In this document: piece after piece, positions 4,275-57,755 of the stretch
Layout of the letters: each line of letters starts with the position of its first letter
Position numbering within the stretch: the first letter of the stretch is position 1
The notes under the pieces: model-generated
Told to the model about the DNA's origin: nothing
What the model saw: only the letters and a program-made list of their open reading frames with translations
Databases searched by the model: none
Made by a program: the position numbers and the translations under genes
Source of the DNA: Patescibacteria group bacterium
Lineage (GTDB): Bacteria > Patescibacteriota > Minisyncoccia > Minisyncoccales > PEYH01
DNA length: 64,000 bases
Reading direction: 5' to 3'
Assembly: GCA_018817645.1 (NCBI GenBank)
Contig: JAHITK010000003.1
Coordinates: 9,922 to 73,921 of the forward strand

Positions 4275-6686
4275 ATGAAATTAAAAAACTTCCTTATCAC
4301 ATCAAAGCAGAAAATTTTCCTTTGGCTGGTTTTTGCCATTACTATGATTTTTGCGCCTACGCATCCTGTTAGGGCGCAATTCGGCATAGAAATCTTGACC
4401 GCGCCCTTTGTTTTTCTGGCAAAACTGGGAATGGCCCTTCTTATCGCCCTGCCTCTCTCTTTCTTCTGCCTTGAAATAGCCCAGATATTTCTAACCTGGG
4501 CCGCTAACCCAAATTTAGTGGGAGGAGTTGCCAGTAATACCTTCGTCCAGGCGGGCTGGACAGTGGTCAGGGATTTTGCCAATCTCTTTTTCATTTTAAT
4601 CGTGGTGGCCATTGGAATAGCCACCGCTTTGAGAGTCAAGCAATACGAAGTAAGAAAGACCCTGCCCCGCTTGATTATTGTCGCCATATTGATAAATTTC
4701 TCGCCCGTAATCTGCGGAGCAGTGATAGACGCAGCCAATATCATTACTAACTTCTTTTTTACCGCCGGCGCCGGGGGATTCGACAACGTCATCACTTTTT
4801 CAAAGGGCTCTTGGGGTTGGTTAAAAGAGAATTTTGGCACCATTAGCGGTGTTTGGGCGGAAATTAGGACAGGCAGAATTTTCTTCAAAATGATAGCCGT
4901 GACTGTATTCAACCTTTTCGGAGCATTTGTCTTATTCTTAATGGGAATACTTTTCATTGTAAGAAATCTCGCTCTGTGGATTTTGGTGATCTTGTCACCT
5001 TTGGCGTTCTTAGGAGCCATATTGCCAAAAGGCGCAGTGATTCCGGGGGTCCCAAAGAAAAAAAATATTTTTGGCATGTGGCGCGACCAATTCGTAAAAT
5101 GGGTTTTTATCGGAGTCACCGGTTCCTTCTTCCTTTATTTGAGCCAGCTGATGATGCAACTACAAGTAAAATCCCTTTTTAACAATCAAGGGCCTACCAC
5201 AGAAGCATCGGAAGTCGGAGGAAATATAATGACCGGCTTAATGATAATGGCCGTACCTTTGATTTTCCTTGGCATAGGGTATTTTGTCACTGTTTCCAGC
5301 TCCGCGCAGGGCGCCGGCGCTATCACAGGATTAGCTAAAAAGGGGTTCGCCTATGGGAAAAAGACAGCCCAAGGTGCGGCGATAAACAGACTAAGAAAAG
5401 ACATAGGGCAACCGATAAAAAATAGTTATGGAAGCGCTAAAAGAACTGTCCAAAAAGCGGCTGGAAGAATAATATCAGCCCGGCCAACCGATGCCGAACG
5501 AAAGGCGAGTTGGGATCAATCCTCTGGCTTAGGAAGGGCTGGCAAGATTGTGGCCAGAGCCGTGATTCCTTATAAAACCAGAGAAAGATGGAAAGCTCAA
5601 GCAACGGCAAAAATAAAAGAAGGGGACGTAGGTAAGGTGGAAAAAGCAAAGGCAGAAGCAAATAAATTAAATACTGCGGAAGCGCGCAAGGCGGGATATT
5701 TAGAAGCCAAGAAACAACGCGACAAGGAAAAACAACTCGGCTATATTCAGTCAGCCATAGAAAAAGGAGAATTAGACGGTTATTCAAATCAAGAAATTCA
5801 GCGCGCTATACGAGATGCCGGACAAATCAATAAAAAATTGGCAGAGGAAATAATGCAATCCGCACCCAATTTGGCCAAACAGGTTTATGACGAATATCAT
5901 CAAGCGCATCCGAATATAATGAATGAATATAACAATCTAAACACACAGCGAAATGATTTAGACGCTCAACGGATAGCTGCCCAGAATGCGGGCAACAATG
6001 GTTTAGCAAATCAGTTACAAGGACAAATGGACGCATTACAAAGGCAGATGGATAGAGCCAAGCGACCAGCAGACGAGAGAGGTCTATGGATATCGCCTGA
6101 AGACACGCAGCGTTACGGCGGATTGGAGGAAAAAATTGTACTTACTACTAAAACAAAGGATGTCGGTAAATTTAGAAAAAATTACGTAAAGACAAACAGA
6201 TTTATGGAAATTATTCAGGATGAAGCTCATCAAGGGAAAAATGCTTGGTCTGGAAACAACTTATCAAAAATAGCGGAAGAATATGGAACGCCCGTAGCTG
6301 ACCTGTATAATGCCACATCTGACAGAATAAATCGAGCCGGAAACTGGATGCATAATATCGCTGGAAAACGTCACCACATAAAAAGATATATTACAAACAA
6401 CCCCGGAGCTATTGCGGCAGGATATAGACTTCCCGAAGGTGTTTCTGAAGATGATGATGGAGACGATGAAGGAAAGAAAATAATAATCCCGTCTTCAACC
6501 AATGCAAGGACAACTAGCAAGGAAAATATGGATGAAAAACAAAGAGCAGAAATGGAAGAAGAGTCTAGAAGGAAAAGTGAGGAAAGTTCCAGAAGGCGGG
6601 AACCTAATCCTGATGAAAGGGGCGACCGCGGTGAAGAGGAAAGAGAGGGAAGGGGCGGACGCGAGCCCAGAGATGACGAAAGGTAA
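4275..6686 (+). CDS. VirB6/TrbL-like polytopic membrane protein with a long charged coiled-coil C-terminal tail
   Basis: Signal-like N-terminus, at least 6 hydrophobic helices in the first 400 aa, then a roughly 400-aa K/E/R-rich tail ending RRKSEESSRRREPNPDERGDRGEEE. Located next to the VirB4-like genes. Confidence 0.45.
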   Translation: MKLKNFLITSKQKIFLWLVFAITMIFAPTHPVRAQFGIEILTAPFVFLAKLGMALLIALPLSFFCLEIAQIFLTWAANPNLVGGVASNTFVQAGWTVVRDFANLFFILIVVAIGIATALRVKQYEVRKTLPRLIIVAILINFSPVICGAVIDAANIITNFFFTAGAGGFDNVITFSKGSWGWLKENFGTISGVWAEIRTGRIFFKMIAVTVFNLFGAFVLFLMGILFIVRNLALWILVILSPLAFLGAILPKGAVIPGVPKKKNIFGMWRDQFVKWVFIGVTGSFFLYLSQLMMQLQVKSLFNNQGPTTEASEVGGNIMTGLMIMAVPLIFLGIGYFVTVSSSAQGAGAITGLAKKGFAYGKKTAQGAAINRLRKDIGQPIKNSYGSAKRTVQKAAGRIISARPTDAERKASWDQSSGLGRAGKIVARAVIPYKTRERWKAQATAKIKEGDVGKVEKAKAEANKLNTAEARKAGYLEAKKQRDKEKQLGYIQSAIEKGELDGYSNQEIQRAIRDAGQINKKLAEEIMQSAPNLAKQVYDEYHQAHPNIMNEYNNLNTQRNDLDAQRIAAQNAGNNGLANQLQGQMDALQRQMDRAKRPADERGLWISPEDTQRYGGLEEKIVLTTKTKDVGKFRKNYVKTNRFMEIIQDEAHQGKNAWSGNNLSKIAEEYGTPVADLYNATSDRINRAGNWMHNIAGKRHHIKRYITNNPGAIAAGYRLPEGVSEDDDGDDEGKKIIIPSSTNARTTSKENMDEKQRAEMEEESRRKSEESSRRREPNPDERGDRGEEEREGRGGREPRDDER

Positions 6687-6697
6687 ATAAAAATTTA

Positions 6698-6730
6698 AAA
6701 CAGGGCTGTCCCTCCGGACAGCCCTGTTTG
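6698..6730. terminator. Bidirectional stem-loop terminator between convergent genes
   Basis: AAACAGGGCTGTCC-CTCC-GGACAGCCCTGTTT, a perfect 14-bp stem. Confidence 0.7.
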
Positions 6731-6741
6731 GCTTCCACCTC

Positions 6742-8013
6742 CTATGCCGACTCTTCTTCTGATTTTGGGGTCGGCTTTTTCTTGTCTGCCGGCTCATTGG
6801 TTGCAGCAGATTGTAGCCATTTCAGCAGGAGCGCCGGGACTGCCCCAAGGGATCCCTTCTCTCCGCCTCCCTGATTCAGGGCAACTGCCCATGCTCCTCC
6901 ATGCTTAGCAAGAGTATCTGTCAGCTCAAAGGCCAAGGCCGTCCTTAGTGCCTCGGACTCCTCTCCCATCCCCGCTCCTTGGAGTTTTTCCTTCATATCC
7001 AGCACGGGTCCAATTCGCTCCGCGCTCTCTTGAAGGGCCTTATACAGGGCTGCTTCTGTCTTAAGCTTCTCTACCCGCACGCGCTCGCGGGCTTCCTCAA
7101 TCTCCTTGGAGAGCTTAACAGCTCCGCAAAAGGCCCCTGTAATCTGTAGTATGCCTCTTTGGTGGGCATCTATGGTAATGAGGTTGTCCAAGCTCGCAGC
7201 GATACCCCTATAGAGCTTTGGAAGAGGGATTAGGCGGGTGATTTCTTCATCAAGATCCTCTATCGCCGGGTTAGACATATCCGGCACCGCGTCAATAGCT
7301 GTCATCGTCGCAAGGAGCGTTTTTTTCAGCGCCCTCACTCTCTTCAGTTTTTCCTTGGCAACGCCCTCGGCTTCGCGGATTCGGTCCAAGATGTTATCAC
7401 GGATCATTCCCTCGTCAGTCGCTTCTGCGACTGTAAGGGTTTGTATATACCCCACGATAAGCGAATTGGCCTTATTCCGAATCCAGTCCGGCCAATCTTG
7501 GACGCCGTACACCGCTGCCACGATATCGCCAAACCCAACACCCATTTTCAAGACGAGGGTGTAATCTCGAAGATAGATGACCCCATCATGTATTTGGATC
7601 TTGGGCAGTTCCCCTGGCGGTAGGGGGATGAGGTCAAGCACCCTTTCGTGCGGCCTCATCAACTTTCCCTTCGTATCTATGAAGGGTATCGTCAGGTGAA
7701 TGCCCGGACAGAGAGCGTCTTTCCTCCTTCCGAACCTCAAGCGGAGCCATGTTTCCGGCTCTGGAACAATCCATACGCCCCAGCAAACTAAGCCCCCGAG
7801 CGCAAGGATCTCCCCAAGAAACGACCAGCCCTTGGGAATCGCGAAGAGGCCCAAAACGAATATCAAGAGTCCAGCCCAAAAACCGACATTGGCAAAAATC
7901 CTGAAAATTCGTCTCTGCACCTCTACCCCTCTTTCTTGTCCTTGGCGCCCTACTCCTTGCCCTGCTCTCGCGGCAACCTGTCCAGTTGCAACCTCTGTTG
8001 GCATTTTGCCCAT
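6742..8013 (-). CDS. SPFH/band-7 (stomatin/HflC-like) membrane protein, anomalously GC-rich
   Basis: TM segment then VPEPETWLRLRFGRR...LTIPFID...IQIHDGVIYLRDYTLV fits the SPFH fold, followed by a coiled-coil tail. Local GC is visibly far above the surrounding genome. Confidence 0.6.
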   Translation of the reverse strand: MGKMPTEVATGQVAARAGQGVGRQGQERGVEVQRRIFRIFANVGFWAGLLIFVLGLFAIPKGWSFLGEILALGGLVCWGVWIVPEPETWLRLRFGRRKDALCPGIHLTIPFIDTKGKLMRPHERVLDLIPLPPGELPKIQIHDGVIYLRDYTLVLKMGVGFGDIVAAVYGVQDWPDWIRNKANSLIVGYIQTLTVAEATDEGMIRDNILDRIREAEGVAKEKLKRVRALKKTLLATMTAIDAVPDMSNPAIEDLDEEITRLIPLPKLYRGIAASLDNLITIDAHQRGILQITGAFCGAVKLSKEIEEARERVRVEKLKTEAALYKALQESAERIGPVLDMKEKLQGAGMGEESEALRTALAFELTDTLAKHGGAWAVALNQGGGEKGSLGAVPALLLKWLQSAATNEPADKKKPTPKSEEESA

Positions 8014-8681: not shown

Positions 8682-8810
8682 CAAATCAAGTAAAATCCCA
8701 ATGTCAAAATCCAAATGACAAATCAAGCCCAAAATCCAAAATTATTATTATTTGACATTTGGATTTGGGATTTGATTTGATATCTGACATTTGGGCTTTG
8801 GATTTTTAAC
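8682..8810. repeat. AT-rich imperfect palindrome built from CAAAATCCAAA / TTTGGATTTTG units (MITE-like)
   Basis: Left arm ...caaaatccaaatgacaaatcaagcccaaaatccaaaat, right arm atttgacatttggatttgggatttgatttg...gctttggattttt. Same family as 19956-20131. Confidence 0.6.
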
Positions 8811-8811
8811 T

Positions 8812-9228
8812 ATGGAGTATCCTCTGCCACAATTTTTATCAATAAAACCAAAGGTTGCCGGACCCCTTAATTTAATGCAACTGTTGTATATCGTGGGCGG
8901 GGCAATCGTGGCCGTTATTTTCTACTTCACCGCTTCCCTCACCACCTTTATCATAATGGGCATCCCGATTATGGTGGTTGCTTTGATTTTGGCTTTTGGC
9001 AAAAGAAAAGGATTCCCGATTCCCACCATCATCGGCCGTTCTTTTATGTTTATCTTTGCCAGTAAAAGATATCTCTGGAAAAAAGTGGACACGCCGGCAA
9101 TCGTGCTTCCAAAAGCGACCAAGGCAAAGGCCGCAGAATTAGAAGACGATAAAGCGGTGAGCTTAAAAATTTCCGGCCAGAGCAGATTGAAAGAAATTGG
9201 GCGGCTGATTGAAATTCATCCCAAGTAA
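8812..9228 (+). CDS. Small two-TM membrane protein (VirB3-like position); the ORF track starts at TTG 8791
   Basis: Two long hydrophobic helices. Immediately precedes the VirB4-like genes. Confidence 0.4.
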   Translation: MEYPLPQFLSIKPKVAGPLNLMQLLYIVGGAIVAVIFYFTASLTTFIIMGIPIMVVALILAFGKRKGFPIPTIIGRSFMFIFASKRYLWKKVDTPAIVLPKATKAKAAELEDDKAVSLKISGQSRLKEIGRLIEIHPK

Positions 9229-9242
9229 ACTAATTTTGTATT

Positions 9243-9881
9243 ATGAATCTTTCATCCCAACAATTCCTGCCATTAGAACAAATAAAAGAGGGCATTATGA
9301 TATTGAAGGACCATAGTTTGAGGGGCATAATGATGGCCTCCTCCCTTAATTTCGCCCTCAAAGCCACTGACGAGCAGGAAGCGATTATTTATCAATTCCA
9401 GACATTTTTAAATGCTTTAGATTTTTCCTGCCAAATCTTTATCGCTTCAAGAAAAGTGAATATTACCGGCTATCTGGAAAAACTAAAAGAAGTGGAGAAA
9501 AAACACGAGAATGAATTGATGGCTGCCCAGACCAGGGAATACCGGAAGTTTATTGAAAAAATAGTGGCTGGCGGTTCCATCATGAATAAAAATTTCTACA
9601 TAATCGTGCCTTTTTACCTCTCGGAAATGTACGGAGGCGCTACCAAAGGAGGAATACTCACTCTAAAAGCAGCGCCGACCTTAACCGAAGAAATGTTCCA
9701 AAGGGCAAAATCTCAACTTTATCAAAGAATGGAATTTCTGTCTTTGGGCTTGAGAAGGTGCGGGGTTTGGAGCGTTGCCTTACAGAGCGAAGAATTAATA
9801 GAGCTTTTATGGAGTATGTCCCACCCCAAAGAATCCTCTGTCGGCTATTACCCGGAGATTCCGCCTGAATTAATACAATAA
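9243..9881 (+). CDS. VirB4/TraC-family N-terminal domain encoded as a separate ORF
   Basis: ILKDHSLRGIMMASSLNFALKATDEQEAI... resembles the N-terminal segment of conjugative VirB4 ATPases. The stop is 8 nt before the next ORF. Confidence 0.4.
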   Translation: MNLSSQQFLPLEQIKEGIMILKDHSLRGIMMASSLNFALKATDEQEAIIYQFQTFLNALDFSCQIFIASRKVNITGYLEKLKEVEKKHENELMAAQTREYRKFIEKIVAGGSIMNKNFYIIVPFYLSEMYGGATKGGILTLKAAPTLTEEMFQRAKSQLYQRMEFLSLGLRRCGVWSVALQSEELIELLWSMSHPKESSVGYYPEIPPELIQ

Positions 9882-9889
9882 CGAATAAA

Positions 9890-12800
9890 ATGAAACTGCC
9901 TTCTTTAAGTGAATTATTGGGAAGAAAGACGGCCTATGAAGCCGGCGCGGAACCGCAAGCAATGAATTTGCTTGATTTTATCGCTCCGCCGGCCATTACC
10001 ATCGGGTCTGATTATTTCCAAATCGGGGAAAAATTCGCCAAATCATATTTTATCTTTTCCTATCCAAGATATTTGAGCACCGGGTGGCTGGCGCCGATTA
10101 TAAACCTGGATATTCCTTTGGATATCTCCATTTTCTTTCATCCGATTGACACTGGGCTTGTTTTGAAAAAATTAAGCAAAAAGGTTACCGAGGTTCAGTC
10201 CGAGATTATGGAAAAAGAGGAAAAGGGACTGATTCGAGACCCGGTGCTGGAAACCGCGTACAAAGATATTGAGATATTAAGAGACCGGCTCCAAACAGCG
10301 CAGGAAAGAATGTTTAGGATAGGGCTTTACCTGACCATATACGCTGACGATAAAAAGGAATTGGAAAAAATAGAGGGCACGATTCGCTCGATTCTGGAAT
10401 CAAAATTGGTCTATATAAAACCAGCTCTCTACCAGCAGGACCGGGCGATGGTTTCCGCCTATCCCGCAGGCATAGACCGGCTTCAGGTGCATACCTCCAT
10501 CAATACCAGCCCGCTTTCCACAATTTTCCCTTTCGTGTCTTTTGATTTGAGTTCCAATGAAGGAATCCTTTACGGAATCAATCAGCATAACAGTTCGCTG
10601 GTCTTGTTTGACCGATTCAGCTTGGAGAACGCTAACTCGGTCGTGTTCGGAAAAAGCGGCGGCGGCAAAAGCGTTTTATCATTTGAGCCGGTGCTGATAA
10701 GCGAAAACGGCCAAACCAAAGTTGAAAATATCGGCAAAGTGGTGGAAAGAGCGATAGAAAAATACGGGTGTCAAAAAATTGACGAGGAGCTGGAAGGAGC
10801 GCTAAATCCATCCATTAAGGTTTGGAGTTTTGATAAAAATCTTAAAGGCAGTTGGTCAACAGTGACAGTCGCGGCCAGGAAAAAAGCCCCTGAAACATTT
10901 TATAAATTCAGAACCCGGAGCGGGAGAGAAGTGAGCACAACCGGAGACCATAATATGCTAATCATCAGAAACGGACAAATCGTGGCTGAGAAAAGCGCTG
11001 AAATCAAGGCAGGGGAATTCATCCCGTTGTCCAGAAAAATTTCCGAAAACTCCTCTCCGGATAAATTCATAAACCTGCTTGAATTGTTGAAAAACTCCCG
11101 CTTGATTTATATTTCCAAGGCGGAAAAAATCATTAAAAAATATTATCATCAGATAAAAAATCTTGAAGGGAATTCCTCGTTAGGGAAATATCTCTATAAA
11201 TACAAGGCTGGCCGGAGAATTCCTATTAAATATTTCTTGGAAATCATCAATTCTTTAAAAATTCCGGAAGCCGAGTTTAATGATTTGAAGATTGTTTCCA
11301 AAAACGGAGACCTCGGCAATGGTTTGAAGATAAACCTACCTATTTCAGCCGACTTATTGAAAATAATCGGTTTTATAACATCAGAAGGGACAGTGGGCGA
11401 ACACTTTATAAATATCAGCAACCAGGACGAGGGATTCATCAAGGAGTGTATGGATTCTTTCAGAAATATTGGAATCCCCTGTTATCGGACAGATAAAGCG
11501 GTTATTTGCGCCAGCCGCGTTTTCACGGAAATCATCAAATCATTGGGCGGAAAACAAAAATCCGGAAACAAAAAGGTATTGCCATTCATATTCAATGCGG
11601 AAAAAGAAAAAATCGCGCCATTTCTTTCCGCTTATTTTGAAGGAGACGGGGAGGTGGAACATAATAAAATATGTGTCACGACCAAATCAAAACAATTATC
11701 ATCTGAAATCTCTTATCTGCTTTATTATTTTGGAATCATTGCCCGGATTCAAAAGAAAATCAAATACGCAGCCAATACGAAAAAGAAACTTAAACAAACA
11801 TACTGGCAGATTTCTATATCAGGCAAAAGCGATTTGGAAAAATTTGCCCAAGAAATCGGGTTCATTTCCGGCAGAAAAACAAATAAACTGAACAGTATCA
11901 TAAAAGAAAACGGAAATACCAATGTTGATATAATTCCGGGTCTGACCTCGTTATTTGGAGAAATGTACAATGCCTGCCCTCCGCTTCTTATGGGGATGCC
12001 GGAAATTTCCGCCCTGAAGTGCGGGGTTTATAATCCTTCGCCGGATAATTTAAAAAGAATAATAGAAAAAATAGAAAAAAGGGTTGTTTATTTTAAAGAG
12101 CGGGGAGAACAAATAAAAATCCTGTCGGAATTGCCTAGAATTCAGGAATTAATTGAGCGCGGAGAAAGCGATAAATCGCTAAACAAGGAATTATGGAATT
12201 ATCTTGGCCCCAGCTGGCAACTTGTAAAAACCAACCAAGTTGACCCGGGCTTTGAAAATGTATCAAAAATCATCAATGTAATTTATGGCAATGATTATAA
12301 TCTGTCGGAAATCAAAAAAGAGATTCATCAGGGATTCAAAGAAATGGATATCTCTATTAAGGACTATAATCGCACCGTCCAGTCGGCATTAATAGACAGA
12401 CCGGATTCGAATACCAGATACCGCACCATTCAACAAGCCGGTCAGCTCATTTGGCAGAGATACCAGACAGTTTTAAGAAATGGCCTTCCAAAAATTGAGA
12501 ACACGCTTACGCGCCTAAAAACTCTGGCCAATTCTGATTTATTCTTTGATGAAATTGTCAGCATTGAAAAAATTGCCAACCAGAACGAGCAATATGTTTA
12601 TGACTTAACGGTGGACAATGAAGTGTTTCTCTGCGGGAACGGCGGAATGTTCGTGCATAATTCTTACGCTGTCAAGTTGGAGGTTTTACGGTCGTTAATG
12701 CTTGGAATTGAATCAATTATCATTGACCCGGAAAACGAGTATAAATTCCTCTCCGACGCAGTGGGCGGCAAGTTTTACAATATCTCTTTGGCCTCGGAAA

Positions 12801-13681
12801 GTCATATTAATCCTTTTGACCTGCCCGAACCGTTGGAAGGTGAAGGCCCAAAAGATGTCCTGCGCTCCAATATTATCAATTTGGTCGGGCTGATGAGAAT
12901 AATGCTTAGCGGGCTTACGCCGGAAGAGGACTCCATTATTGACCAGGCGATTAACGAAACATACGCGGCCCGCGACATTACCGCAGACACAGATCCTGTT
13001 TTATGGAAAGAAAGAGTGCCTTTGCTGGCTGATTTGGAGTCAGTGCTGGAAACAATGGAAGGCGCTGAATCGCTGGTTAAGCGATTAAGAAAATTCACCA
13101 AAGGCGTCTACGCGGGATTCTTTAATTATCCGACAAATATAATAATGGACAATCCCTTGGTCGTTTTCGGCATTAAAAACCTGGAAACGGAATTAAGGCC
13201 GTTGGCGATGTTCATTGTTATGCGCTACATCTGGAATGCCATCAAAGAGGATTTGAAAAAAAGAATCTTGGTGATTGATGAGGCCTGGTGGCTGATGCAG
13301 ACAGAGGACAGCGCCTCTTTCCTCTACGGAATTGTAAAAAGAGGCAGAAAATACTGGCTCGGCACAACCACCATCACCCAAGATGTCAATGATTTTATGA
13401 AATCAGAATACGGCCAGCCGATTATTACCAACTCTTCTCTGCAGTTATTGATGAAACAATCGCCCGCCACTATTGAAGTGGTAAAGGAAACATTCAACCT
13501 CACTGACCAGGAGAAATATCTTCTTTTGGAAGCGCCGATCGGCGAAGGAATATTTTTTGCCGGGGAAAAACATGTTTCCATCAGAGTGGTTGCTTCTTAC
13601 GCCGAAGACCAGATTATCACCACCTCGCCCGAAGAAATGATTAAAATCAAAAAACTTAAAAAAATAAGAGAAAATGCCTGA
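9890..13681 (+). CDS. VirB4/TrbE-like T4SS ATPase interrupted by an in-frame intein
   Basis: Walker A VVFGKSGGGKS then, after the insert, the VirB4 IIIDPENEY motif. Walker B ILVIDEAWWL. Extein about 600 aa. Confidence 0.8.
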   Translation: MKLPSLSELLGRKTAYEAGAEPQAMNLLDFIAPPAITIGSDYFQIGEKFAKSYFIFSYPRYLSTGWLAPIINLDIPLDISIFFHPIDTGLVLKKLSKKVTEVQSEIMEKEEKGLIRDPVLETAYKDIEILRDRLQTAQERMFRIGLYLTIYADDKKELEKIEGTIRSILESKLVYIKPALYQQDRAMVSAYPAGIDRLQVHTSINTSPLSTIFPFVSFDLSSNEGILYGINQHNSSLVLFDRFSLENANSVVFGKSGGGKSVLSFEPVLISENGQTKVENIGKVVERAIEKYGCQKIDEELEGALNPSIKVWSFDKNLKGSWSTVTVAARKKAPETFYKFRTRSGREVSTTGDHNMLIIRNGQIVAEKSAEIKAGEFIPLSRKISENSSPDKFINLLELLKNSRLIYISKAEKIIKKYYHQIKNLEGNSSLGKYLYKYKAGRRIPIKYFLEIINSLKIPEAEFNDLKIVSKNGDLGNGLKINLPISADLLKIIGFITSEGTVGEHFINISNQDEGFIKECMDSFRNIGIPCYRTDKAVICASRVFTEIIKSLGGKQKSGNKKVLPFIFNAEKEKIAPFLSAYFEGDGEVEHNKICVTTKSKQLSSEISYLLYYFGIIARIQKKIKYAANTKKKLKQTYWQISISGKSDLEKFAQEIGFISGRKTNKLNSIIKENGNTNVDIIPGLTSLFGEMYNACPPLLMGMPEISALKCGVYNPSPDNLKRIIEKIEKRVVYFKERGEQIKILSELPRIQELIERGESDKSLNKELWNYLGPSWQLVKTNQVDPGFENVSKIINVIYGNDYNLSEIKKEIHQGFKEMDISIKDYNRTVQSALIDRPDSNTRYRTIQQAGQLIWQRYQTVLRNGLPKIENTLTRLKTLANSDLFFDEIVSIEKIANQNEQYVYDLTVDNEVFLCGNGGMFVHNSYAVKLEVLRSLMLGIESIIIDPENEYKFLSDAVGGKFYNISLASESHINPFDLPEPLEGEGPKDVLRSNIINLVGLMRIMLSGLTPEEDSIIDQAINETYAARDITADTDPVLWKERVPLLADLESVLETMEGAESLVKRLRKFTKGVYAGFFNYPTNIIMDNPLVVFGIKNLETELRPLAMFIVMRYIWNAIKEDLKKRILVIDEAWWLMQTEDSASFLYGIVKRGRKYWLGTTTITQDVNDFMKSEYGQPIITNSSLQLLMKQSPATIEVVKETFNLTDQEKYLLLEAPIGEGIFFAGEKHVSIRVVASYAEDQIITTSPEEMIKIKKLKKIRENA
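10679..12661 (+). mobile_element. Intein (about 661 aa) with LAGLIDADG homing-endonuclease domain, inserted 3 residues after the P-loop
   Basis: N-splice SFEPVLISENGQ...IG (Hint block A, Ser1). Two LAGLIDADG-type motifs, LLKIIGFITSEGTV and APFLSAYFEGDGEV. C-terminal blocks VYDLTVDNEVFLCGNGGMFVHN followed by +1 Ser. Confidence 0.8.
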
Positions 13682-13973
13682 AACAATGTCGGCAATGGGG
13701 ATTATGAAACTGCTAATCGCTATCATATTGGACGGCGCTACTCTCATTTGTTTATGGTTTTACACTCTTGGTGGTCCGGGGATATTTATCGGCGAAACTC
13801 TTTCCTATGTCCCCAAAATATTAAGCTTGGTCTTTCTCGGGGGTTGGAGTTTATCAGGCAAAGATAAAAAAATAAATATGGGGAATAAGAAGGTCTTATG
13901 GAAACTTATTCCTGGAATCGGAAATCTTCCTTTTAATACTCTAAACCAGATAACCGCGCTTAACGCTGCTTAA
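13674..13973 (+). CDS. Small hydrophobic membrane protein (pilin/VirB2-like candidate)
   Basis: 99 aa, two hydrophobic helices. Overlaps the VirB4 stop by 8 nt (translational coupling). Confidence 0.35.
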   Translation: MPETMSAMGIMKLLIAIILDGATLICLWFYTLGGPGIFIGETLSYVPKILSLVFLGGWSLSGKDKKINMGNKKVLWKLIPGIGNLPFNTLNQITALNAA

Positions 13974-13994
13974 AACGATTCTTAATTTTCAACA

Positions 13995-16568
13995 ATGTCC
14001 GGTAAAAAAAACATTCTTTTTATCGCCTTGGTTTTGCTGGCTGTTTTTTTATTAACAATAATCCATTGTTCAACCGTAAGCGCAGCTAAATTAGAGAATA
14101 TCTATCCAAATATCCCAGGAGCAGTAACACCAACCACTACTGAAACGCCCCTGCCTGTATTATTCAAATATCTCTACAATCTTTCCATTATTTTAGCCGG
14201 AGTTATCGCCTTTGTGGTCACGGTCTGGGGAGGGATTAGATACATTTTAGCCGGTCCCCAGCCCGGAAAATTGACGGATGCCAGAGAGCAAATCGCTCTC
14301 GGATTTGTAGGAATGATAATTATTTTTGGCTCATATGTCATTGTAAACACCATAAATCCCGATTTCACGAAACTAACCGTAATCCTGCCGGTTAATAAAT
14401 TCACCGGCACCCTTCCGCCGCCAAGCGATACTTCTAATATTGATATCGGCCTTTTTGAGATCCCGGTCGGTTCAATCATTACCTCTGAATTCGGGGCTTC
14501 TTCTTTTCTGGCAACCACCAGCCCTGATATTGATTACGCCAATACCGAATGGCCGTCAGCCACTACCAGCACCAGCACTTATGACACCGACTTTCAGGGC
14601 GCTCTTTTCGGGGCGCGTTTAAGGCGGGTTTATGAGGTGGCAAGCACTACTGTGCCGGCGGCCCAAAAACTTCACGATTTGAGCACGGAACTCAAAGACC
14701 TTACAGATGACTGCACTTGCATGTATGAATGCCAAGGAAATTTCGCAATAGTATGTGAAACAGATGAGAATTGCGGTTGCGACGAAGGATATCTGTGCAG
14801 TGACGACACAAAAGATAAAATGAAAGAAAAAATAACGGAAATCGGGTCTTTAAAAGACGCTTTCAAGGCATTTTTAAATCCTAACTCTCTGGTGAAGGAT
14901 TATTATAATAATAACCAGTCCGATATTGACGGTCTGGATGATAATGAAATAAAAGACATCATCCAAACGATGATTGAAGTGGAAAATAAAGGAGGATACA
15001 GTCCGAAAACAGATCTTTTAGAAAGAGATGTAGGAAGAAATCTTTTTGAAATGACTTTTCTTATAAACGATATGAAGAAGATAAAAAGAATGCTTAATCC
15101 TTACGACCAGGATGTGGGATTTTTAAGTTTGCTGACCTTTGCCGAAGCCACCACCTTAGAATCCACTATGGATGTCAGCTCTACGATTTATAATTATTAT
15201 GTCACTTTTGCCTCCGGCTTGGAAAAAATTGACGAAAAAAACGACCCAGCCACTTTTTATTCCGCCGCCACCCTGCCTTACCCTTATGGACCGCCCGGCA
15301 CCCAGCCCTATAATCAGAATATCCCCGAGCCCGACCTCTTGCAATACTTAGATAAACAAAAAATATCTTATCCTGAAAATATCGCTTTCGCAGACGAGCC
15401 CTATACTCCGCCGGATGTAAAATTTAATTTTGACACCCCACCAACCACCGGCGGGGTCTGCAATTATATCGTGGAAATACCCATTGGCCGGGCTCTTGAT
15501 GAAGCCATTAAACTTGCCCAAGCCATCAATAAAGAATTATTCAATATTTTTATTAAAGGGCAGGCGGAAATAATCGGCGCTAATATGTTAATAAAGGCAG
15601 CGGAAAAATTCGCAGACCTGAAATGTGCTGACGGCTGCATTCAGCCAAAATGTTTGGAGGAACTTGGAGTACCTGGTTGTGTCCCTCCTAGTATAGTTCT
15701 TCTTGGTTGGAAATGCTATCCCAATGGGGAAACGGTGTTGTTAAACGCATATACTGGTATCGCTATGGATCTTATTAAGTTGACCACTATCCCGGGCATA
15801 AATCTCGCGCTGGACGATATTGAAACCTCATTTAAAAAATTGGACTCCCAGGAGCCGATTTTAACCGACTATGTCTGCCCAGACATAGAAGGAAATTGCC
15901 TGAGCAAAGACGGCACAGTCCAAGATGACAAAATAGAAAAAAGGGAGTATACTTTAAAAGATAAACTAATCGAGGTCCAACTTTTATTGGACCGCTCCCG
16001 AGAACTGGTGGGCCAAGCCAAAGAAAAAAGCGTTTATGAAATATTGCTGGAGGACTATATCGCTCTTGATCTTGGGGAATATTATAAAAATTTATTGGAT
16101 TACATAAGGGGGATTGACTCTATCAATAAAACCGACCTTCAGGACTGCCACATAATGTCCGGCACCATCAAAAAAATAGAGGGCAAAAACTACAGCACCT
16201 CATTGATGAATTGCCGGGATGCCAAACTCTTGGACCTGATAGATTTTCACGATAAAGAAGTGTGCAGTCCCAACCCTTACCTCGACGCCAATTTTTATTT
16301 AAACCCTGATGCACGCGCCTTACGGCCAATCAGTTGTTATTGCTATGACGAGGATGCTGACAAAAATTACTATAACAAAAGCGATTTCCCGGAACTTTAT
16401 CAGAGTGTAAGCCTTGTCATTCCCAGTTTTGCGGCTGATATAGAAGATTTAGACGCTGACGCTTTGCAGGATATGGCAAACCAATGGCAGGATGCCCGCA
16501 TAGATTTGAATAATTTCGCCGGGTTTGGTAATGATTATTTTTGCTGCATAAAGAACTATGAAGAATAA
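13995..16568 (+). CDS. Large secreted Cys-rich protein with pilin-like two-helix N-terminal module
   Basis: Signal/TM, then KYLYNLSIILAGVIAFVVTVWGGIRYILAG...LTDAREQIALGFVGMIIIFGSYVIVNTINPDF, then about 700 aa rich in Cys clusters (CTCMYECQG..CETDENCGCDEGYLC). Confidence 0.5.
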   Translation: MSGKKNILFIALVLLAVFLLTIIHCSTVSAAKLENIYPNIPGAVTPTTTETPLPVLFKYLYNLSIILAGVIAFVVTVWGGIRYILAGPQPGKLTDAREQIALGFVGMIIIFGSYVIVNTINPDFTKLTVILPVNKFTGTLPPPSDTSNIDIGLFEIPVGSIITSEFGASSFLATTSPDIDYANTEWPSATTSTSTYDTDFQGALFGARLRRVYEVASTTVPAAQKLHDLSTELKDLTDDCTCMYECQGNFAIVCETDENCGCDEGYLCSDDTKDKMKEKITEIGSLKDAFKAFLNPNSLVKDYYNNNQSDIDGLDDNEIKDIIQTMIEVENKGGYSPKTDLLERDVGRNLFEMTFLINDMKKIKRMLNPYDQDVGFLSLLTFAEATTLESTMDVSSTIYNYYVTFASGLEKIDEKNDPATFYSAATLPYPYGPPGTQPYNQNIPEPDLLQYLDKQKISYPENIAFADEPYTPPDVKFNFDTPPTTGGVCNYIVEIPIGRALDEAIKLAQAINKELFNIFIKGQAEIIGANMLIKAAEKFADLKCADGCIQPKCLEELGVPGCVPPSIVLLGWKCYPNGETVLLNAYTGIAMDLIKLTTIPGINLALDDIETSFKKLDSQEPILTDYVCPDIEGNCLSKDGTVQDDKIEKREYTLKDKLIEVQLLLDRSRELVGQAKEKSVYEILLEDYIALDLGEYYKNLLDYIRGIDSINKTDLQDCHIMSGTIKKIEGKNYSTSLMNCRDAKLLDLIDFHDKEVCSPNPYLDANFYLNPDARALRPISCYCYDEDADKNYYNKSDFPELYQSVSLVIPSFAADIEDLDADALQDMANQWQDARIDLNNFAGFGNDYFCCIKNYEE

Positions 16569-18195
16569 AAAGATAAAAAAAATCGTATTGATAATGAGCA
16601 TTTTAGCGGTTCTTTCCTGCGCCGGCTTAATATACGCCCAAGACAGCGATAGTTCGCTTGAATTAGAATATCCCACTTTAGGCGGGATGCAAGGTCCCCA
16701 AAGCACCAGCGTCAAATTAACAACCTATATCCGCTATCTTTATAACTTCGCCATTATCAGCGGCGGGCTGATCGCTTTATTGTCCCTAATTTACGGCGGA
16801 TTTCGGTTTTTGACCTCTACTGGCAATCCAGCTGCCATCACTGACGCCCGGGGACAAATTTTAGCCGGCTTCCTTGGCCTAGTGGTTATTTTGGGCTCAT
16901 ATATAATACTCAATGAACTGAATCCTGATTTAATATCTTTACGAACTCCGGGTATTACGAAACACGGAAAAGGAATAATCTTATACAACCAAGCCAACTG
17001 CGGAGGATTAGGGGATTATGCCGACACCCCTGAAACTACCGATAATATTCCAGACGGACTTCTTTATAAAGCAATAAATAGCAGCGGTTCAGCAACGCTG
17101 GGGAAAAACCAAGATGGAAAAGATATCCTGCCTGTTTCTTTATACTCTTTCCAAGATTCAGAACAATTAATAATACAATTCTATGCTAATGAAGATTGTA
17201 AAAACAATGTCCTTCCCTCGCCCAAACTACAAGCAAACCAATGCTTGGAGATTGATGCCTCCAATGTTAAATGCATAAAATTTATCTGGTACAAACCCGG
17301 GGTCTGGGTGTTCAATAGATTAGATGACGGAGGCAGTGTGCCTGACCCGGGCGACTTGCCTCTTAATTGGGAGGAAGGCAAGGACTACATAGTGGTTCAG
17401 GGCAATCAGGATTCTCTACCCGACAAGTTTAGCGACAAGGTTTTGGGCATAGCAATTGTGCCCAGTAAAGAGTCGCGGGGAGGATTAGGGCAAAACTATG
17501 GCGTAATTGCCCATAATATGTCCGGCGGTATATCGGAAGAAAAGGGCTGGGCGCATATTTATCTTCCCGGATGCGGCTCTACCAAAAAATGCAAAATGAT
17601 GAGAGGAGAGATAACCGTATTCGGTCCATTTTATGACCCCAATAAAGATTATGACTCTGACACCAATAACTACGAATTTTCCCACATCTCTTCTTTAACG
17701 ATATTTAATGTTCCAAAAACAGAGGAAACAAGCAGTAAAGAGATAAAGGTTTGCCGGCAGGATCGCTGTGAGCCGCAATGGGTGGGCGATAAGTCATATG
17801 ATGTTTCTAAAACATACTCTCCCGCAAGCGGGCTTAGAGAAATAACCGGCACTTTTGGCAAGGCGGTTTCTCCTTACAACCCCGGTAAGAGTATAATATA
17901 TGGAATAAGTTTTGAAGGCGTAGAATGGGATGGTACCAATAAAGCCATCGCAATTAGAGAGCATGACCCTAAGTTTGACGATGTACAAGAGGGAGTATCA
18001 GCTATTGAAATAGACGAAGGAGCCCATTATTTACTGCTCCTTTACGAACATTTTATTGATGATTTTTCAAAAATCAATGAAAATGTTTCCACTGACGCAG
18101 CCATTATCAATATATCCCAAACATCTTTGAGAACCATCCAGATGAATGACCGGGTGGGCACCATTATCGTTATCAGGACAGAGGCGAAGGATTAA
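16558..18195 (+). CDS. Paralogous secreted protein with the same pilin-like N-terminal module
   Basis: RYLYNFAIISGGLIALLSLIYGGFRFLTS...ITDARGQILAGFLGLVVILGSYIILNELNPDL aligns residue-for-residue with the 13995 protein. The C-terminal domain differs. Confidence 0.5.
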   Translation: MKNKKIKKIVLIMSILAVLSCAGLIYAQDSDSSLELEYPTLGGMQGPQSTSVKLTTYIRYLYNFAIISGGLIALLSLIYGGFRFLTSTGNPAAITDARGQILAGFLGLVVILGSYIILNELNPDLISLRTPGITKHGKGIILYNQANCGGLGDYADTPETTDNIPDGLLYKAINSSGSATLGKNQDGKDILPVSLYSFQDSEQLIIQFYANEDCKNNVLPSPKLQANQCLEIDASNVKCIKFIWYKPGVWVFNRLDDGGSVPDPGDLPLNWEEGKDYIVVQGNQDSLPDKFSDKVLGIAIVPSKESRGGLGQNYGVIAHNMSGGISEEKGWAHIYLPGCGSTKKCKMMRGEITVFGPFYDPNKDYDSDTNNYEFSHISSLTIFNVPKTEETSSKEIKVCRQDRCEPQWVGDKSYDVSKTYSPASGLREITGTFGKAVSPYNPGKSIIYGISFEGVEWDGTNKAIAIREHDPKFDDVQEGVSAIEIDEGAHYLLLLYEHFIDDFSKINENVSTDAAIINISQTSLRTIQMNDRVGTIIVIRTEAKD

Positions 18196-18650
18196 GCCGG
18201 CTTGATAATGATTTTGCGGTAAGGGTCTGTGCCGATGCTCTCGGTTTTAACATCGCTTCTCTCTTGAAGTTCCATATGAATAATCCTCCTTTCGTAAGCT
18301 GACATCGGTTTCAGCTCTTTTTCTTGTTTGGAAAAAGCCACATCATCAGCATAACTTCTGGCAATGTCTTTTAAATAATCGAGCTTCTTTTTCTTATAAT
18401 CATTGATATCTAAATCAATGTAAAACTCCTCTTTGAATTTTTTCCTTAAAAACTTGTTCAATAAGCTCTGAATCTCAAAAAGAGTCCGGCCATTGTCGCC
18501 AATCAGGGTTTGAGGCTCTTCGGTCTGAATTGAAACCGGCATAGAAGAATCAGACATTTCTTCAACAGATACTTTGACTTCAAAAGTGGTTTTTTTAAAA
18601 AATTCCTCAACCGCTTTTTTGACTTTTTGGCTTAATTTTCTTTCAAACAT
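18192..18650 (-). CDS. jag: Jag/KhpB-like R3H RNA-binding protein
   Basis: C-terminal R3H-like YERRIIHMELQERSDVKTESIG. Conserved position next to yidC. Confidence 0.7.
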   Translation of the reverse strand: MFERKLSQKVKKAVEEFFKKTTFEVKVSVEEMSDSSMPVSIQTEEPQTLIGDNGRTLFEIQSLLNKFLRKKFKEEFYIDLDINDYKKKKLDYLKDIARSYADDVAFSKQEKELKPMSAYERRIIHMELQERSDVKTESIGTDPYRKIIIKPA

Positions 18651-18651
18651 A

Positions 18652-19380
18652 TTATTTTTTCGTTAAATAATATTTCTTTCTGATAAAAAACTGCTGGGCC
18701 GCCATAAATATCCCGGCCACCAGTAAATAAAGGCCTAAGGCCGCGGGCAGGCGCAAAAGGACAACGGTAATCAAAATAGGGAACAGAAATATCATCTGTT
18801 TTTGAAACATATCCGCGAAGCCCGATTTTTTAGGGGACTGATTCTGGTTTTTTTCCTTTTTCGGCATCGCGAATTTGCTTTGAAGGAAAAAAGTTATGCC
18901 AACGATTACAGCCAAAAAAGGCGATGGCTCGTTCAGATTAATGCCGAGAAACATCGGATTAATCACTTCCGGCCGCTGAACAAAACTGTAAAGATAAACA
19001 AAATTCTCCTCCTGTATGCCCTGCCAGAACATCCGGTAAAGAATAAACAGGATTGGCAGCTGGATAAGGGTCACCAGAAACGCTGAAAAAGGATTAATTT
19101 TTTCGGTTTTATAAAGCTCCATCATTGCTTTTGCCTGCTCCTCCCGGTTATTCTTGTATTTTGCCTGGATCTCTTTCAGTTTGGGCTGCAAGGCCTGCAT
19201 AGCCAGCTGGGACCGGCTCGCCCGGTCTTGCAGAGGATAAAGAATAACCCTGATGAGTAGGGTCAGAACGATAATCGCCACTCCAAGATTATGGCCCGGC
19301 AGATAATAACAGAGCAAAATCAACAGATTAAACAGGGGTTGCCACAATATTACATGAAAAAAATTAGTGAAAGCATTCAT
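18652..19380 (-). CDS. yidC: Membrane protein insertase YidC (short form)
   Basis: LYPLQ...KLKEIQAKYKNNREEQAKAMMELYKTEKINPFS motif. 5 TM helices. Confidence 0.85.
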   Translation of the reverse strand: MNAFTNFFHVILWQPLFNLLILLCYYLPGHNLGVAIIVLTLLIRVILYPLQDRASRSQLAMQALQPKLKEIQAKYKNNREEQAKAMMELYKTEKINPFSAFLVTLIQLPILFILYRMFWQGIQEENFVYLYSFVQRPEVINPMFLGINLNEPSPFLAVIVGITFFLQSKFAMPKKEKNQNQSPKKSGFADMFQKQMIFLFPILITVVLLRLPAALGLYLLVAGIFMAAQQFFIRKKYYLTKK

Positions 19381-19385
19381 TGGTT

Positions 19386-19736
19386 TTATCGCTTATTAAT
19401 AATCCCTGACCTTAATAATAGGTTATTAACGGTTTCTTTTATTCTTTGAAAATCGGTTGTCTTGTTAATTCCGCTTAAAGCGCTGATCACAATGTCTTGC
19501 CCGGTATTTATGGCTGAAAGCGTTTCTTTAACCGCGGCCCTGATTCTTCTTTTAATTAAATTCCTCTCTGCGGCCTTTGAAGCAACCTTCCTGCTGACCA
19601 CAATCCCTATCCGCGAAATATCGGAATTATTGGTGGCGAACTTCAAAAATAAAAAATCCTGCTTAAAGCCCTTGCCTTCCTTATAAACCCTTTCGAAATC
19701 ATTTTTCTTTTTAAGACGATGAATTCTGGGCAACAT
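19386..19736 (-). CDS. rnpA: RNase P protein component
   Basis: RLKKKNDFERVYKEGK... basic 116-aa protein. Position between rpmH and yidC. Confidence 0.8.
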   Translation of the reverse strand: MLPRIHRLKKKNDFERVYKEGKGFKQDFLFLKFATNNSDISRIGIVVSRKVASKAAERNLIKRRIRAAVKETLSAINTGQDIVISALSGINKTTDFQRIKETVNNLLLRSGIINKR

Positions 19737-19737
19737 C

Positions 19738-19872
19738 TTAAACAGTGATTATTTTTCTTCCCTTTTTTCTCCTCCTCTGCAGAACTTTCCGGCCATCGCT
19801 GGTCTGGGAACGCTTTAAAAAGCCATGTTTTTTCTTTCTTTTCTTTTTGTTCTGTTTATAGGTAATAACCAT
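19738..19872 (-). CDS. rpmH: 50S ribosomal protein L34 (44 aa; absent from the ORF track because under 60 aa)
   Basis: Hand-translated: [44 protein letters not shown]. Its stop lies 1 nt before the rnpA start. Confidence 0.8.
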
Positions 19873-19955
19873 AAATTAGTTTGATTAAAATTAATTTGGG
19901 TTTTGTTTAACCAGTATAATCGGGAATAAGCCAGAAGTCAAATTGACGGCTAATT

Positions 19956-20131
19956 AAATCCCAAAATAAAAATCCAAAATCCAAAGCTCAAATGCCAAAT
20001 CAAGCTCAAAATCCAAATTGAAGAAATGTATTCTTTTGACATTTGTCATTTGGACTTGCCTGTCCTGAACCTGTTGAAGGGATTTGACATTTGGATTTTG
20101 ACATTGGGATTTTTAACTTGGGATTTTTAAC
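19956..20131. repeat. CAAAATCCAAA/TTTGGATTTTG inverted-repeat element in the rpmH-dnaA intergenic region
   Basis: aaaatccaaaatccaaagctcaaatgccaaatcaagctcaaaatccaaattg ... gatttgacatttggattttgacattgggatttttaacttgggatttttaac. Confidence 0.6.
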
Positions 20132-20257
20132 TTTATTTCCCCATTTTATCCCCCTTTTTTCAACAGCCCTCTTTGATTTACGCGGAAAACCATTGATTTG
20201 CCTTTTCCAAAAATATAGCATAGTATAAAAGATTGAGATTAACCTTCTTCCAACGCT

Positions 20258-21613: not shown

Positions 21614-21878
21614 AGAGGTTTGAGGAGGGGGAAAACCTGTTAAGAAGTGCTGGATATTGATAGGGATAACAACGGGATAACCAGAGAATAAGACAGGGCC
21701 CTCAAAAACCGAAAAATTTATCCAGACCTAATCAAGGAATTATCAACTGATTTATCAACTAAGTTATTAACTATTTCTCCCCAAAACCAGCCCTTGTCAA
21801 ACCTAAATAAATGATTAAAATGAACTCACCAAATCAATGCCTAATAACAACAATTAATATATTAATTAAATAAATAAT
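21614..21878. promoter_or_regulatory. Candidate oriC / DNA-unwinding region in the dnaA-dnaN spacer
   Basis: Degenerate DnaA boxes (TTATCCAGA, GGATAACAA/GATAACCAG, TTATCAACT x2 in tandem) followed by a roughly 60-nt stretch that is over 85% AT before dnaN. Confidence 0.4.
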
Positions 21879-23012: not shown

Positions 23013-23305
23013 TGTTTGAGTCAATATCAAGAATCATAAACAAGAGAGCCGACCGATTCTCTTTTAAAAGGGAAATTTTGGCAGTAGAAATTTGCCGGAT
23101 ATGGCCAAAAGTCCTGAAGCAATTATTTGATGAAGAAATAGCTGGTTCTACTCAAGCCCTGTCTTTCCGAGACGGGGTTTTGGTGGTAAGAGTCCAGCAC
23201 CCGACATTAATGCAGGAGCTCCAGATAGAGAATGAAAATATAATTGCTTCCCTGAACAGAGAAGCGAAAAAAAGAGTCGTGGGGAAAATTGTCTATCGAA
23301 CCTAA
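23012..23305 (+). CDS. DUF721/DciA-like small protein
   Basis: W..V....IAG.T..L.FRDGVLVV.V....LMQELQ pattern typical of DUF721. Position after dnaN. Confidence 0.5.
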   Translation: MFESISRIINKRADRFSFKREILAVEICRIWPKVLKQLFDEEIAGSTQALSFRDGVLVVRVQHPTLMQELQIENENIIASLNREAKKRVVGKIVYRT

Positions 23306-23307
23306 TC

Positions 23308-57726: not shown

Positions 57727-57755
57727 ACTTTTATAATTACTGATTTTAATTTTAG

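Follow-up and report, generated by a model that had tools for sequence, protein, structure and literature searches.

The 64,000-nucleotide stretch analysed here (the window; contig JAHITK010000003.1 of a metagenome-assembled Patescibacteria genome) carries a gene for a VirB4-like ATPase of a type IV secretion system (T4SS), and the P-loop of this ATPase is interrupted by an insert with the features of a LAGLIDADG intein. The precursor gene occupies 9890..13681 on the forward strand and is a single uninterrupted frame of 1263 amino acids (aa) plus stop, recognised from the open reading frame (ORF) list and from matches to NCBIfam conju_CD1110 and Pfam P-loop_TraG and AAA_10. By exact look-up the precursor is NCBI record MBU1045590.1, named 'hypothetical protein KJ616_00520 [Patescibacteria group bacterium]'. 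A first-pass annotation, made from the sequence alone, had proposed a VirB4-like T4SS ATPase with its P-loop split by a large LAGLIDADG intein, and this was borne out by hidden Markov models (HMMs), by the alignment of the spliced product and by the existence of empty alleles. The motifs that it quoted, i.e., GKSGGGKS at aa 254 (nucleotide 10649), SFEPVL at aa 264 (nucleotide 10679), the two LAGLIDADG motifs, FVHN↓SYAV (arrows mark splice junctions) and IIIDPENEY, were all found where it had placed them.

The N-extein (9890..10669, +; aa 1-260) ends in ...VVFGKSGGGK and comprises the Walker A motif through its Lys, as delimited by alignment with the intein-free proteins P0001, P0002, P0008 and P0066. 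The C-extein (12662..13681, +; aa 925-1263 and the stop codon) was delimited by the alignment with intein-free alleles and by a conju_CD1110 match over 925-1230. It begins with the Ser+1 codon (12662-12664), and this residue doubles as splice nucleophile and Walker A serine; downstream of it we read SYAVKLEVLRSL, then IIIDPENEY (aa 943) and then the Walker B motif ILVIDEAWW. The Walker A motif GKSGGGK↓S is intact only after the intein has been removed. In a scan of the 1263-aa protein, the flanks of the insert matched Pfam P-loop_TraG and AAA_10 and, weakly, CagE_TrbE_VirB, and conju_CD1110 was matched in two pieces. The conceptually spliced protein matched the same model (NF045971; MPF-FATA type) in a single stretch, residues 23-569, with 361.6 bits against a cut-off of 325, a score computed on the 602-aa splice product of the first-pass annotation, from which the corrected product of 599 aa differs only by the loss of SVL.

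The spliced protein was searched against 5.8 billion proteins. The best matches, P0001 and P0002, lack the insert and show 95% and 94% identity to it along the full length (100%) of the query, the alignment running contiguously across the junction, and thousands of VirB4-like proteins of ~595-600 aa were retrieved from Parcubacteria, Paceibacterota and Patescibacteria. Empty alleles make up 38 of the 39 closest extein homologs. The search for intein-free alleles, which the first-pass annotation had recommended, thus marks the insert as a presence/absence segment rather than a native domain of the ATPase (P0001, P0002 and the metagenomic contig L001).

Boundaries and insertion site of the intein

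The intein was assigned to 10670..12661 (+), that is 664 aa from S261 to N924 (SVLSFEPV...GGMFVHN). The empty alleles read ...VVFGKSGGGK↓SYAIKLEILRSL..., and in the alignment P0001 and P0002 are without exactly aa 261-924, which places the insertion point between Lys260 and the Ser of the Walker A motif (GxxxxGK↓S). Removal of S261-N924 leaves 599 aa, the same length as P0001, with zero gaps. The NCBIfam intein_Nterm model (TIGR01445) agrees in register, its position 7 being aligned to residue 267, so that model position 1 is residue 261. Among ~40 related inteins, only S, C or T occur at the position of residue 261, whereas that of aa 264 varies between G, S, P and N; of 79 relatives, 69 have S at intein position 1, six have C and four have T. 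At the DNA level, L001, a 130-kb metagenomic contig, is collinear with window positions 83-23879 at 73-86% nucleotide identity, and the sole break lies between 10668 and 12659, with both junctions in frame to the nucleotide. Because this break falls at GK↓S, the precursor is without an intact P-loop.

The first-pass annotation had given the intein a span of 10679-12661 (~661 aa), with aa 264 as Ser1 and the insertion after the Walker A motif. Its end at 12661 was correct; its start was 9 nucleotides (3 aa) too late, since Ser1 is residue 261 according to the empty alleles, the TIGR01445 register and conservation, and the intein lies inside the motif. A boundary at aa 264 would leave three extra residues, SVL, and was ruled out on the same three grounds.

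Splicing and endonuclease domains

The search with Hint and LAGLIDADG models gave strong matches, as the first-pass annotation had anticipated. In the precursor, Pfam Intein_splicing (PF14890) was matched with E 1.2e-18 over residues 302-924 and LAGLIDADG_3 (PF14528) with E 4.4e-19 over residues 574-657; the NCBIfam model TIGR01445 reached E 1e-11, above its cut-off, intein_Cterm (TIGR01443) scored 17.5 bits against a 15.6-bit cut-off, and there were strong partial NCBIfam matches to archaeal intein-containing proteins. An AlphaFold2 model of the intein, built from a 43-sequence alignment, had a mean predicted local distance difference test (pLDDT) score of 93.7 and a predicted template-modelling (pTM) score of 0.88. 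Its best Foldseek matches were PI-TkoII (2cw7; E 2.5e-27, TM score 0.72 on the target), TliVMA (7qss), PI-PfuI (1dq3) and PI-SceI, with I-DmoI and I-Tsp061I matching the endonuclease core.

The N-terminal part of the Hint splicing domain (10670..11044, +; intein aa 1-125) was delimited by TIGR01445, by sequence matches in the PDB and by its substitution pattern (see below). Block A provides Ser1 (10670-10672), and the T-x-x-H of block B is TGDH (intein aa 91-94, 10940-10951); residues 4-141 match PI-PkoII and the TFIIB mini-inteins in the PDB sequence search. The C-terminal part (12530..12661, +; intein aa 621-664) was recognised in the same way through TIGR01443 and the PDB alignment. Its block F is YVYDLTVDNEVFL and its block G is GGMFVHN with a penultimate His and a terminal Asn, and residues 613-664 align with the C-terminal ends of PI-PkoII and of the TFIIB intein. 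The splice junction FVHN↓SYAV (aa 921-928) has the C-terminal HN followed by Ser+1.

The LAGLIDADG homing endonuclease domain (11345..11869, +; intein aa 226-400) was recognised from Pfam LAGLIDADG_3, Foldseek and codon substitution. It contains motif 1, LLKIIGFITSEGTV, at aa 489 (11354-11395; core GFITSEG, acidic residue E) and motif 2, APFLSAYFEGDGEV, at aa 576 (11615-11656; core YFEGDG, acidic residue D). Both motifs have their terminal acidic residue and the fold agrees with PF14528 and the Foldseek matches; block D is KKVLP and block H is YLLYYFGII. In the family as a whole (~40 protein clusters and 100 listed loci), the conserved elements are S/C/T1, TTGDHN, SEG, EGDG, the block D Lys, YVYDLTVD and FVHN↓S.

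Additional modules of the intein

Two further modules are embedded in the intein. The middle insert (11045..11344, +; intein aa 126-225, ~100 aa) lies between Hint-N and the endonuclease and has mixed strand and helix in the model. It is kept in roughly half of the family members, the others having 0-50 aa at this place, and no Pfam match to it was found. The second module is an extra, confidently predicted all-alpha domain (11870..12529, +; intein aa 401-620, ~220 aa) with an isoelectric point of 9.2, which accounts for the ~200 aa that the first-pass annotation had rightly described as unassigned sequence before the C-terminal splicing block. It opens with the family-invariant GNTNVD(I/V)IP, which reads GNTNVDIIP in the window copy, and in the AlphaFold2 model contains two long helices of 30-37 residues (intein 458-487 and 584-620). 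Against Pfam at E up to 10 only noise was obtained (ArsR 0.081, myosin lever 0.14), and no match was found among solved folds, the known DNA-binding folds included. A phmmer search of 1.84 billion representative proteins with this domain retrieved only 15 clusters, and all eight of these that were scanned with Pfam are VirB4-like or HerA-like ATPases with the domain inside their intein. The ~220-aa helical domain is thus a conserved domain specific to this intein family. PI-SceI and PI-PfuI carry extra DNA-binding regions, and by analogy with them the middle insert and the basic helical domain are most likely accessory modules with which the endonuclease would recognise DNA or be positioned on it.

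Distribution and variation of the family

A search with the intein only retrieved 43 protein clusters, of which ~37 are VirB4-like, at 33-55% identity. The VirB4-like clusters come from Harrisonbacteria, Falkowbacteria, Taylorbacteria, Portnoybacteria, Uhrbacteria, Yanofskybacteria, Andersenbacteria and Pacebacteria, and the site GxGK↓S...HN↓S is common to every member whose locus reaches a splice junction. The distribution was also screened with a degenerate DNA signature for blocks F and G that is unique within the window, and this signature occurred in at least 100 stretches among 185,579 species-representative genomes. The HN↓S junction followed by a C-extein of the form S[YF]xx... was present in all 100 matches listed, and in 97 of these the C-extein has the VirB4 motif KLExLRSL, exact or slightly varied; the remaining three listed loci are archaeal, two of them from Micrarchaeota (L009 and L087, which read KTF...) and one from Altiarchaeota (L104, which reads KLMLMRE). 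The bacterial matches listed are Paceibacteria-type and Microgenomatia-type Patescibacteria, including Amesbacteria, Woesebacteria, Gottesmanbacteria, Collierbacteria, Kaiserbacteria, Nealsonbacteria, Nomurabacteria and Zambryskiibacteria, and two closed chromosomes, CP066693 and CP179887, are among them. The first-pass annotation had called such an intein unusual and large. Neither description survives the screen for this clade, as the same family occupies the same site in at least 100 species-representative genomes, nearly all of them Patescibacteria, and among listed loci holding both junctions the inteins measure 391-679 aa (median ~645), many of them having 655-679 (false N-junction calls inside block D in L041, L084 and L102 being left out of these statistics). 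The length of 664 aa is the standard full-length form and no outlier. In JGI or NCBI, a handful of members already carry the label 'intein/homing endonuclease' or 'LAGLIDADG family homing endonuclease'.

Empty (P0001-P0038), full and decayed alleles were all seen. Both catalytic acids are retained in most of the ~100 copies. In the decayed P0039 and P0129, motif 1 is deleted and motif 2 reads YFEKYA/FFEKKA, and the motif acids are substituted in P0130 (AKS) and P0154 (SNI/EGNG). Thr was observed as intein residue 1 in L010, L018, P0126 and P0130 (GK↓TLDYHSPVL, GK↓TIHGNEPVL and others), with the other blocks intact; to our knowledge, Thr1 is very rare among described inteins.

In four loci (L017, L026, L052 and L091), a related intein, recognisable by the same block F/G signature, lies five residues upstream in the same Walker A motif. 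The second site reads LENANMVVFGK↓S(L/V)ASWEP...FVHN↓SG(S/G)GKS, the intein has ~601-603 aa, and both junctions were verified in L017 and in L052 (Gottesmanbacteria JAUXTO010000022.1). The presence of two K↓S junctions in GK↓SGGGK↓S suggests ectopic homing between the two Walker A sites.

Inteins of this family were also observed at the equivalent GxGK↓S of archaeal (DPANN-type) DUF87/HerA- or VirB4-like ATPases (L009, L087, L104, P0150, P0153 and P0176). Compared with the copies of Patescibacteria, the archaeal inteins are 38-42% identical and their exteins 20-25%, and the Micrarchaeota copies alone have inteins more alike than their exteins. These identities suggest that the intein has moved from one kind of ATPase host to another, or between archaea and ultra-small bacteria.

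Selection and history

The protein P0165, encoded on contig L105, is a 1263-aa intein-bearing ortholog, 87% identical to the window protein without gaps. The ratio of nonsynonymous to synonymous substitution rates (dN/dS) was calculated codon-wise by the method NG86 between the window and L105. It was 0.033 for the exteins (dS 0.86) and 0.086 for the whole intein (dS 1.23), and within the intein it was 0.057 for Hint-N (dS 1.47), 0.13 for the middle insert (dS 0.99), 0.085 for the endonuclease (dS 1.12), 0.10 for the helical domain (dS 1.26) and 0.029 for Hint-C (dS 1.81). Every module of the intein, the endonuclease and the helical domain included, is therefore under purifying selection. The extein value in two intein-bearing lineages implies that the mature host ATPase is functional, and hence that splicing would have to work.

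The exteins of the window are about equally distant from the intein-bearing L105 (dS 0.86) and from the intein-free L001 (dS 1.04), which indicates that presence or absence of the intein is polymorphic among close relatives. Over 65 loci with complete inteins, intein identity follows extein identity (Spearman 0.68), and the nearest inteins are in the nearest exteins, with extein and intein identities of 95 and 81% for L105, 88 and 62% for L035, and 80 and 53% for L089. This pattern indicates that intein and host gene have diverged together over a long time, or that the intein was exchanged among close relatives only, in either case with scattered losses, and not a recent invasion. VirB4 of Patescibacteria has long harboured this intein, which is mostly co-inherited, occasionally lost or decayed, and kept functional by selection. 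The first-pass annotation had taken the intact endonuclease as a sign of recent mobility; the endonuclease is indeed intact, and recent mobility was not supported, the intein having been resident before the split from L105.

The intein has a lower GC content (0.390; 0.431 at third codon positions, GC3) than the exteins (0.445; GC3 0.528). A recent acquisition, which this might hint at, was ruled out by the sharing of the intein with L105 at dS ~1.2 and by the co-divergence with the exteins. Because the intein is shared and co-diverging in this way, its lower GC is attributed to weaker codon and amino-acid constraint (the sequence is rich in K, N and I), and the difference is more likely an effect of constraint than of foreign origin. 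No second related intein was found in the window by phmmer on the six-frame ORFs.

Genomic context

The gene for the VirB4-like ATPase lies in a T4SS cluster. Upstream, a PrgI-family (VirB3-like) membrane protein is encoded at 8791..9228 (+; Pfam PrgI E 5.1e-07), in the same order in L001 and L105. It is followed by the gene of a 212-aa TraC-like protein at 9243..9881 (+), so classified because its syntenic counterparts of 212 aa in L001 and L105 match PF26593 (TraC-like); the copy in the window had no match in the Pfam scan. This 212-aa gene is directly upstream of VirB4, and VirB4 itself begins with a short N-domain. TrsD-type proteins are remotely homologous to the VirB4 N-terminal domain (PMC12102498), and the 212-aa protein is homologous to that domain and probably the equivalent of TrsD.

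Downstream of VirB4 there is a 99-aa gene and, at 13995..16568 (+), the gene of an 857-aa protein with an N-terminal T4SS pilin domain (Pfam T4SS_pilin E 4e-06), syntenic in L001 and L105. After the pilin domain, ~700 aa of Cys-rich sequence had no Pfam match. The gene evolves fast, the alignment piece 12659-17576, which holds it and its neighbours, having just 73% nucleotide identity to L001; the protein may be a pilus-tip or adhesin-like component. The T4SS cluster is followed by yidC, rnpA, dnaA and dnaN, in synteny with L001 and L105. Window positions 17989-23879 correspond to L001 16038-21790 with yidC, rnpA, dnaA, dnaN and dciA, i.e., the chromosomal replication origin lies beside the T4SS cluster. 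The cumulative GC skew stays flat across 1-32 kb and then climbs steadily between ~32 kb and 64 kb. A chromosomal, origin-proximal T4SS without relaxase has been described for Patescibacteria, with VirB4 in 2,417 of 3,035 genomes (PMC12102498), and the cluster in the window is this arrangement.

Elsewhere in the window, a gene at 6742-8013 (-) encodes a 423-aa SPFH/Band-7 domain protein with an Ala/Gly/Arg-rich N-terminus, found at the same place in L001, and the interval 6001-8000 is locally GC-rich (0.50 vs a window mean of 0.42). The only structured RNAs at gathering thresholds are a transfer-messenger RNA (57753-58131, -; Rfam 100.3 bits) with the tag peptide ANLFQRPAYAYA, and a tRNA-Arg(CCG) at 47432-47505 (+).

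Proposed mechanism and alternative explanations

Taken together, the element is very probably a canonical class-1 intein with an active-looking LAGLIDADG endonuclease, inserted in frame between Lys260 and the Walker A Ser of the chromosomal VirB4-like ATPase of Patescibacteria (Parcubacteria/Paceibacteria-type). The data show what the element is, where it begins and ends, its domain content, its distribution and the selection on it; splicing, cleavage activity, the target site and the roles of the extra domains are inferred from conserved residues and established intein chemistry. The 1263-aa precursor, with its P-loop broken, would be unable to bind ATP properly. Splicing would start with an N-O acyl shift at Ser1, helped by Thr91 and His94 of block B; Ser+1 would then attack the ester in a transesterification to give the branched intermediate, and cyclisation of Asn664, helped by His663, would free the intein. 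A final O-N shift would yield the 599-aa VirB4 with an intact GKSGGGKS Walker A motif. The freed 664-aa intein would be a site-specific DNA endonuclease, and its predicted target is the Walker A coding sequence of intein-less virB4, roughly ...GGNGGNGGNAAR↓TCNTAYGC...; recombinational repair of the cut allele would copy the intein in (homing).

Several observations weigh against this reading or leave room beside it. Given the co-divergence of intein and exteins, homing may no longer be ongoing, the purifying selection on the endonuclease could reflect another selected role, and the DNA-accessory role of the two extra modules, which match no fold or family, is pure inference. Furthermore, dS values of 0.86-1.8 near saturation make the dN/dS ratios approximate, all segments still being far below 1. 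An alternative in which splicing is kept while the endonuclease no longer homes, the intein being a vertically inherited passenger or serving the host, e.g., through conditional control of T4SS motor assembly by the helical domain, would account for the correlation of intein with extein identity (Spearman 0.68, the nearest inteins in the nearest exteins), for an intein older than the split of the window and L105 (dS ~1.2), and for a helical domain that is conserved, selected and unlike known DNA-binding folds. It has also been proposed that P-loop inteins are possibly retained for function (Novikova et al. 2016, PMC4760082). We nevertheless consider this alternative unlikely, because both LAGLIDADG acids and the block D Lys are kept in most of the ~100 copies and the endonuclease dN/dS is 0.085, and under the standard homing-cycle model such conservation is expected only if cleavage still matters. 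The patchy distribution (38 of 39 closest extein homologs empty) and the decayed copies fit a selfish element better than an essential regulator, and Ser1 and Ser+1 offer no obvious redox switch. In a related and still more doubtful proposal, the helical domain and the middle insert, both of them seen in this intein family only, could make splicing of the essential, origin-proximal T4SS motor conditional, for instance on host contact, nucleotide state or DNA binding, or the helical domain could be a DNA-recognition module of a kind not seen before. If true, the intein would be a post-translational switch of the epibiotic machinery of Patescibacteria or, in the other case, the helical domain could be used to engineer endonuclease specificity.

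Two explanations that deny a working intein were also weighed against the canonical, splicing one. Ser nucleophiles are intrinsically less reactive than Cys, and the locus might on that account be a degenerate, non-splicing remnant or a pseudogene-like VirB4 with a dead T4SS ATPase. This is highly improbable: the 1263-aa frame is unbroken with every splicing residue intact, dN/dS within the intein is lowest in the Hint blocks (0.03-0.06), and a dead gene could not show the very strong constraint seen on the exteins of two intein-bearing lineages (dN/dS 0.033). As the source is a metagenome-assembled genome, a chimeric contig joining VirB4 to an unrelated intein fragment through misassembly or misbinning has to be considered as well, and its probability is negligible: the same architecture was independently assembled in L105 (JGI 3300004238) at equal length without gaps, and it is present in at least 100 other genomes, including the closed CP066693 and CP179887, with junctions in frame to the nucleotide.

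The gene deserves annotation as VirB4 with an intein instead of a 1263-aa 'hypothetical protein'. Surveys and phylogenies of the Patescibacteria T4SS (2,474 VirB4 homologs in PMC12102498) take in interrupted genes without remark. This T4SS is near-universal in Patescibacteria, and Ca. Southlakia epibionticum, the sole genetically tractable member, needs it for epibiotic growth (PMC10633639); in at least 100 species its motor ATPase would have to be spliced before it can become active. With its full, trimmed, decayed and empty alleles, a second site five residues away and archaeal relatives, the family is good material on the persistence of inteins in P-loops.

Comparison with known systems

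Inteins in VirB4 have been recorded before. Five VirB4 (COG3451) inteins in Firmicutes and Proteobacteria are listed in Table 3 of Novikova et al. (2016, PMC4760082); those hosts, compared here by tally only, belong to T4SSs of mobile elements, whereas the host in the window is the chromosomal, origin-proximal, clade-specific VirB4 of Patescibacteria. The 2025 survey of the Patescibacteria T4SS mentions inteins nowhere (0 occurrences, PMC12102498), and in a literature coverage that was incomplete, so that this is absence of evidence only, we found no paper on these inteins of Patescibacteria VirB4, on their second site or on the extra domain, the five listed VirB4 inteins being the only relevant item. 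Within this family (P0165 on L105, P0121, the Harrisonbacteria protein COU09_00740 = P0128, and GW2011 Amesbacteria and Woesebacteria), the GxGK↓S site, the blocks and the optional modules are the same at 33-81% identity. The window copy is a distinct member, with L105 as the nearest at 81% and the next at ~62%, and its own record is labelled only 'hypothetical protein'.

The known intein closest to that of the window is PI-TkoII/PI-PkoII, DNA polymerase intein 2 of Thermococcus kodakarensis (2cw7), which is both its best sequence match (phmmer E 9.3e-19) and its best fold match, and in which the Hint domain is likewise split by a two-motif LAGLIDADG endonuclease. The block order A, B, C, D, E, H, F, G is shared with PI-TkoII and the related archaeal inteins PI-PfuI (1dq3) and Tli/Pho VMA (7qss/7qst). 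The identity to these archaeal LAGLIDADG inteins is only 12-17%, and they reside in polymerases or V-ATPases, whereas the host here is a bacterial T4SS ATPase. The window intein is also ~185 residues longer than PI-TkoII between the endonuclease core and Hint-C (query 358-613 vs target 416-487), and these extra residues are the helical domain, which has no counterpart in solved structures. The location in a Walker A motif is shared with P-loop inteins of other ATPases, namely DnaB site b, MCM site a and RFC-S site a. Nothing here overturns the current understanding of inteins: P-loop inteins are a well-known theme, and the family described here is widespread and ordinary in its mechanism, the conserved helical domain being its one unexplained element.

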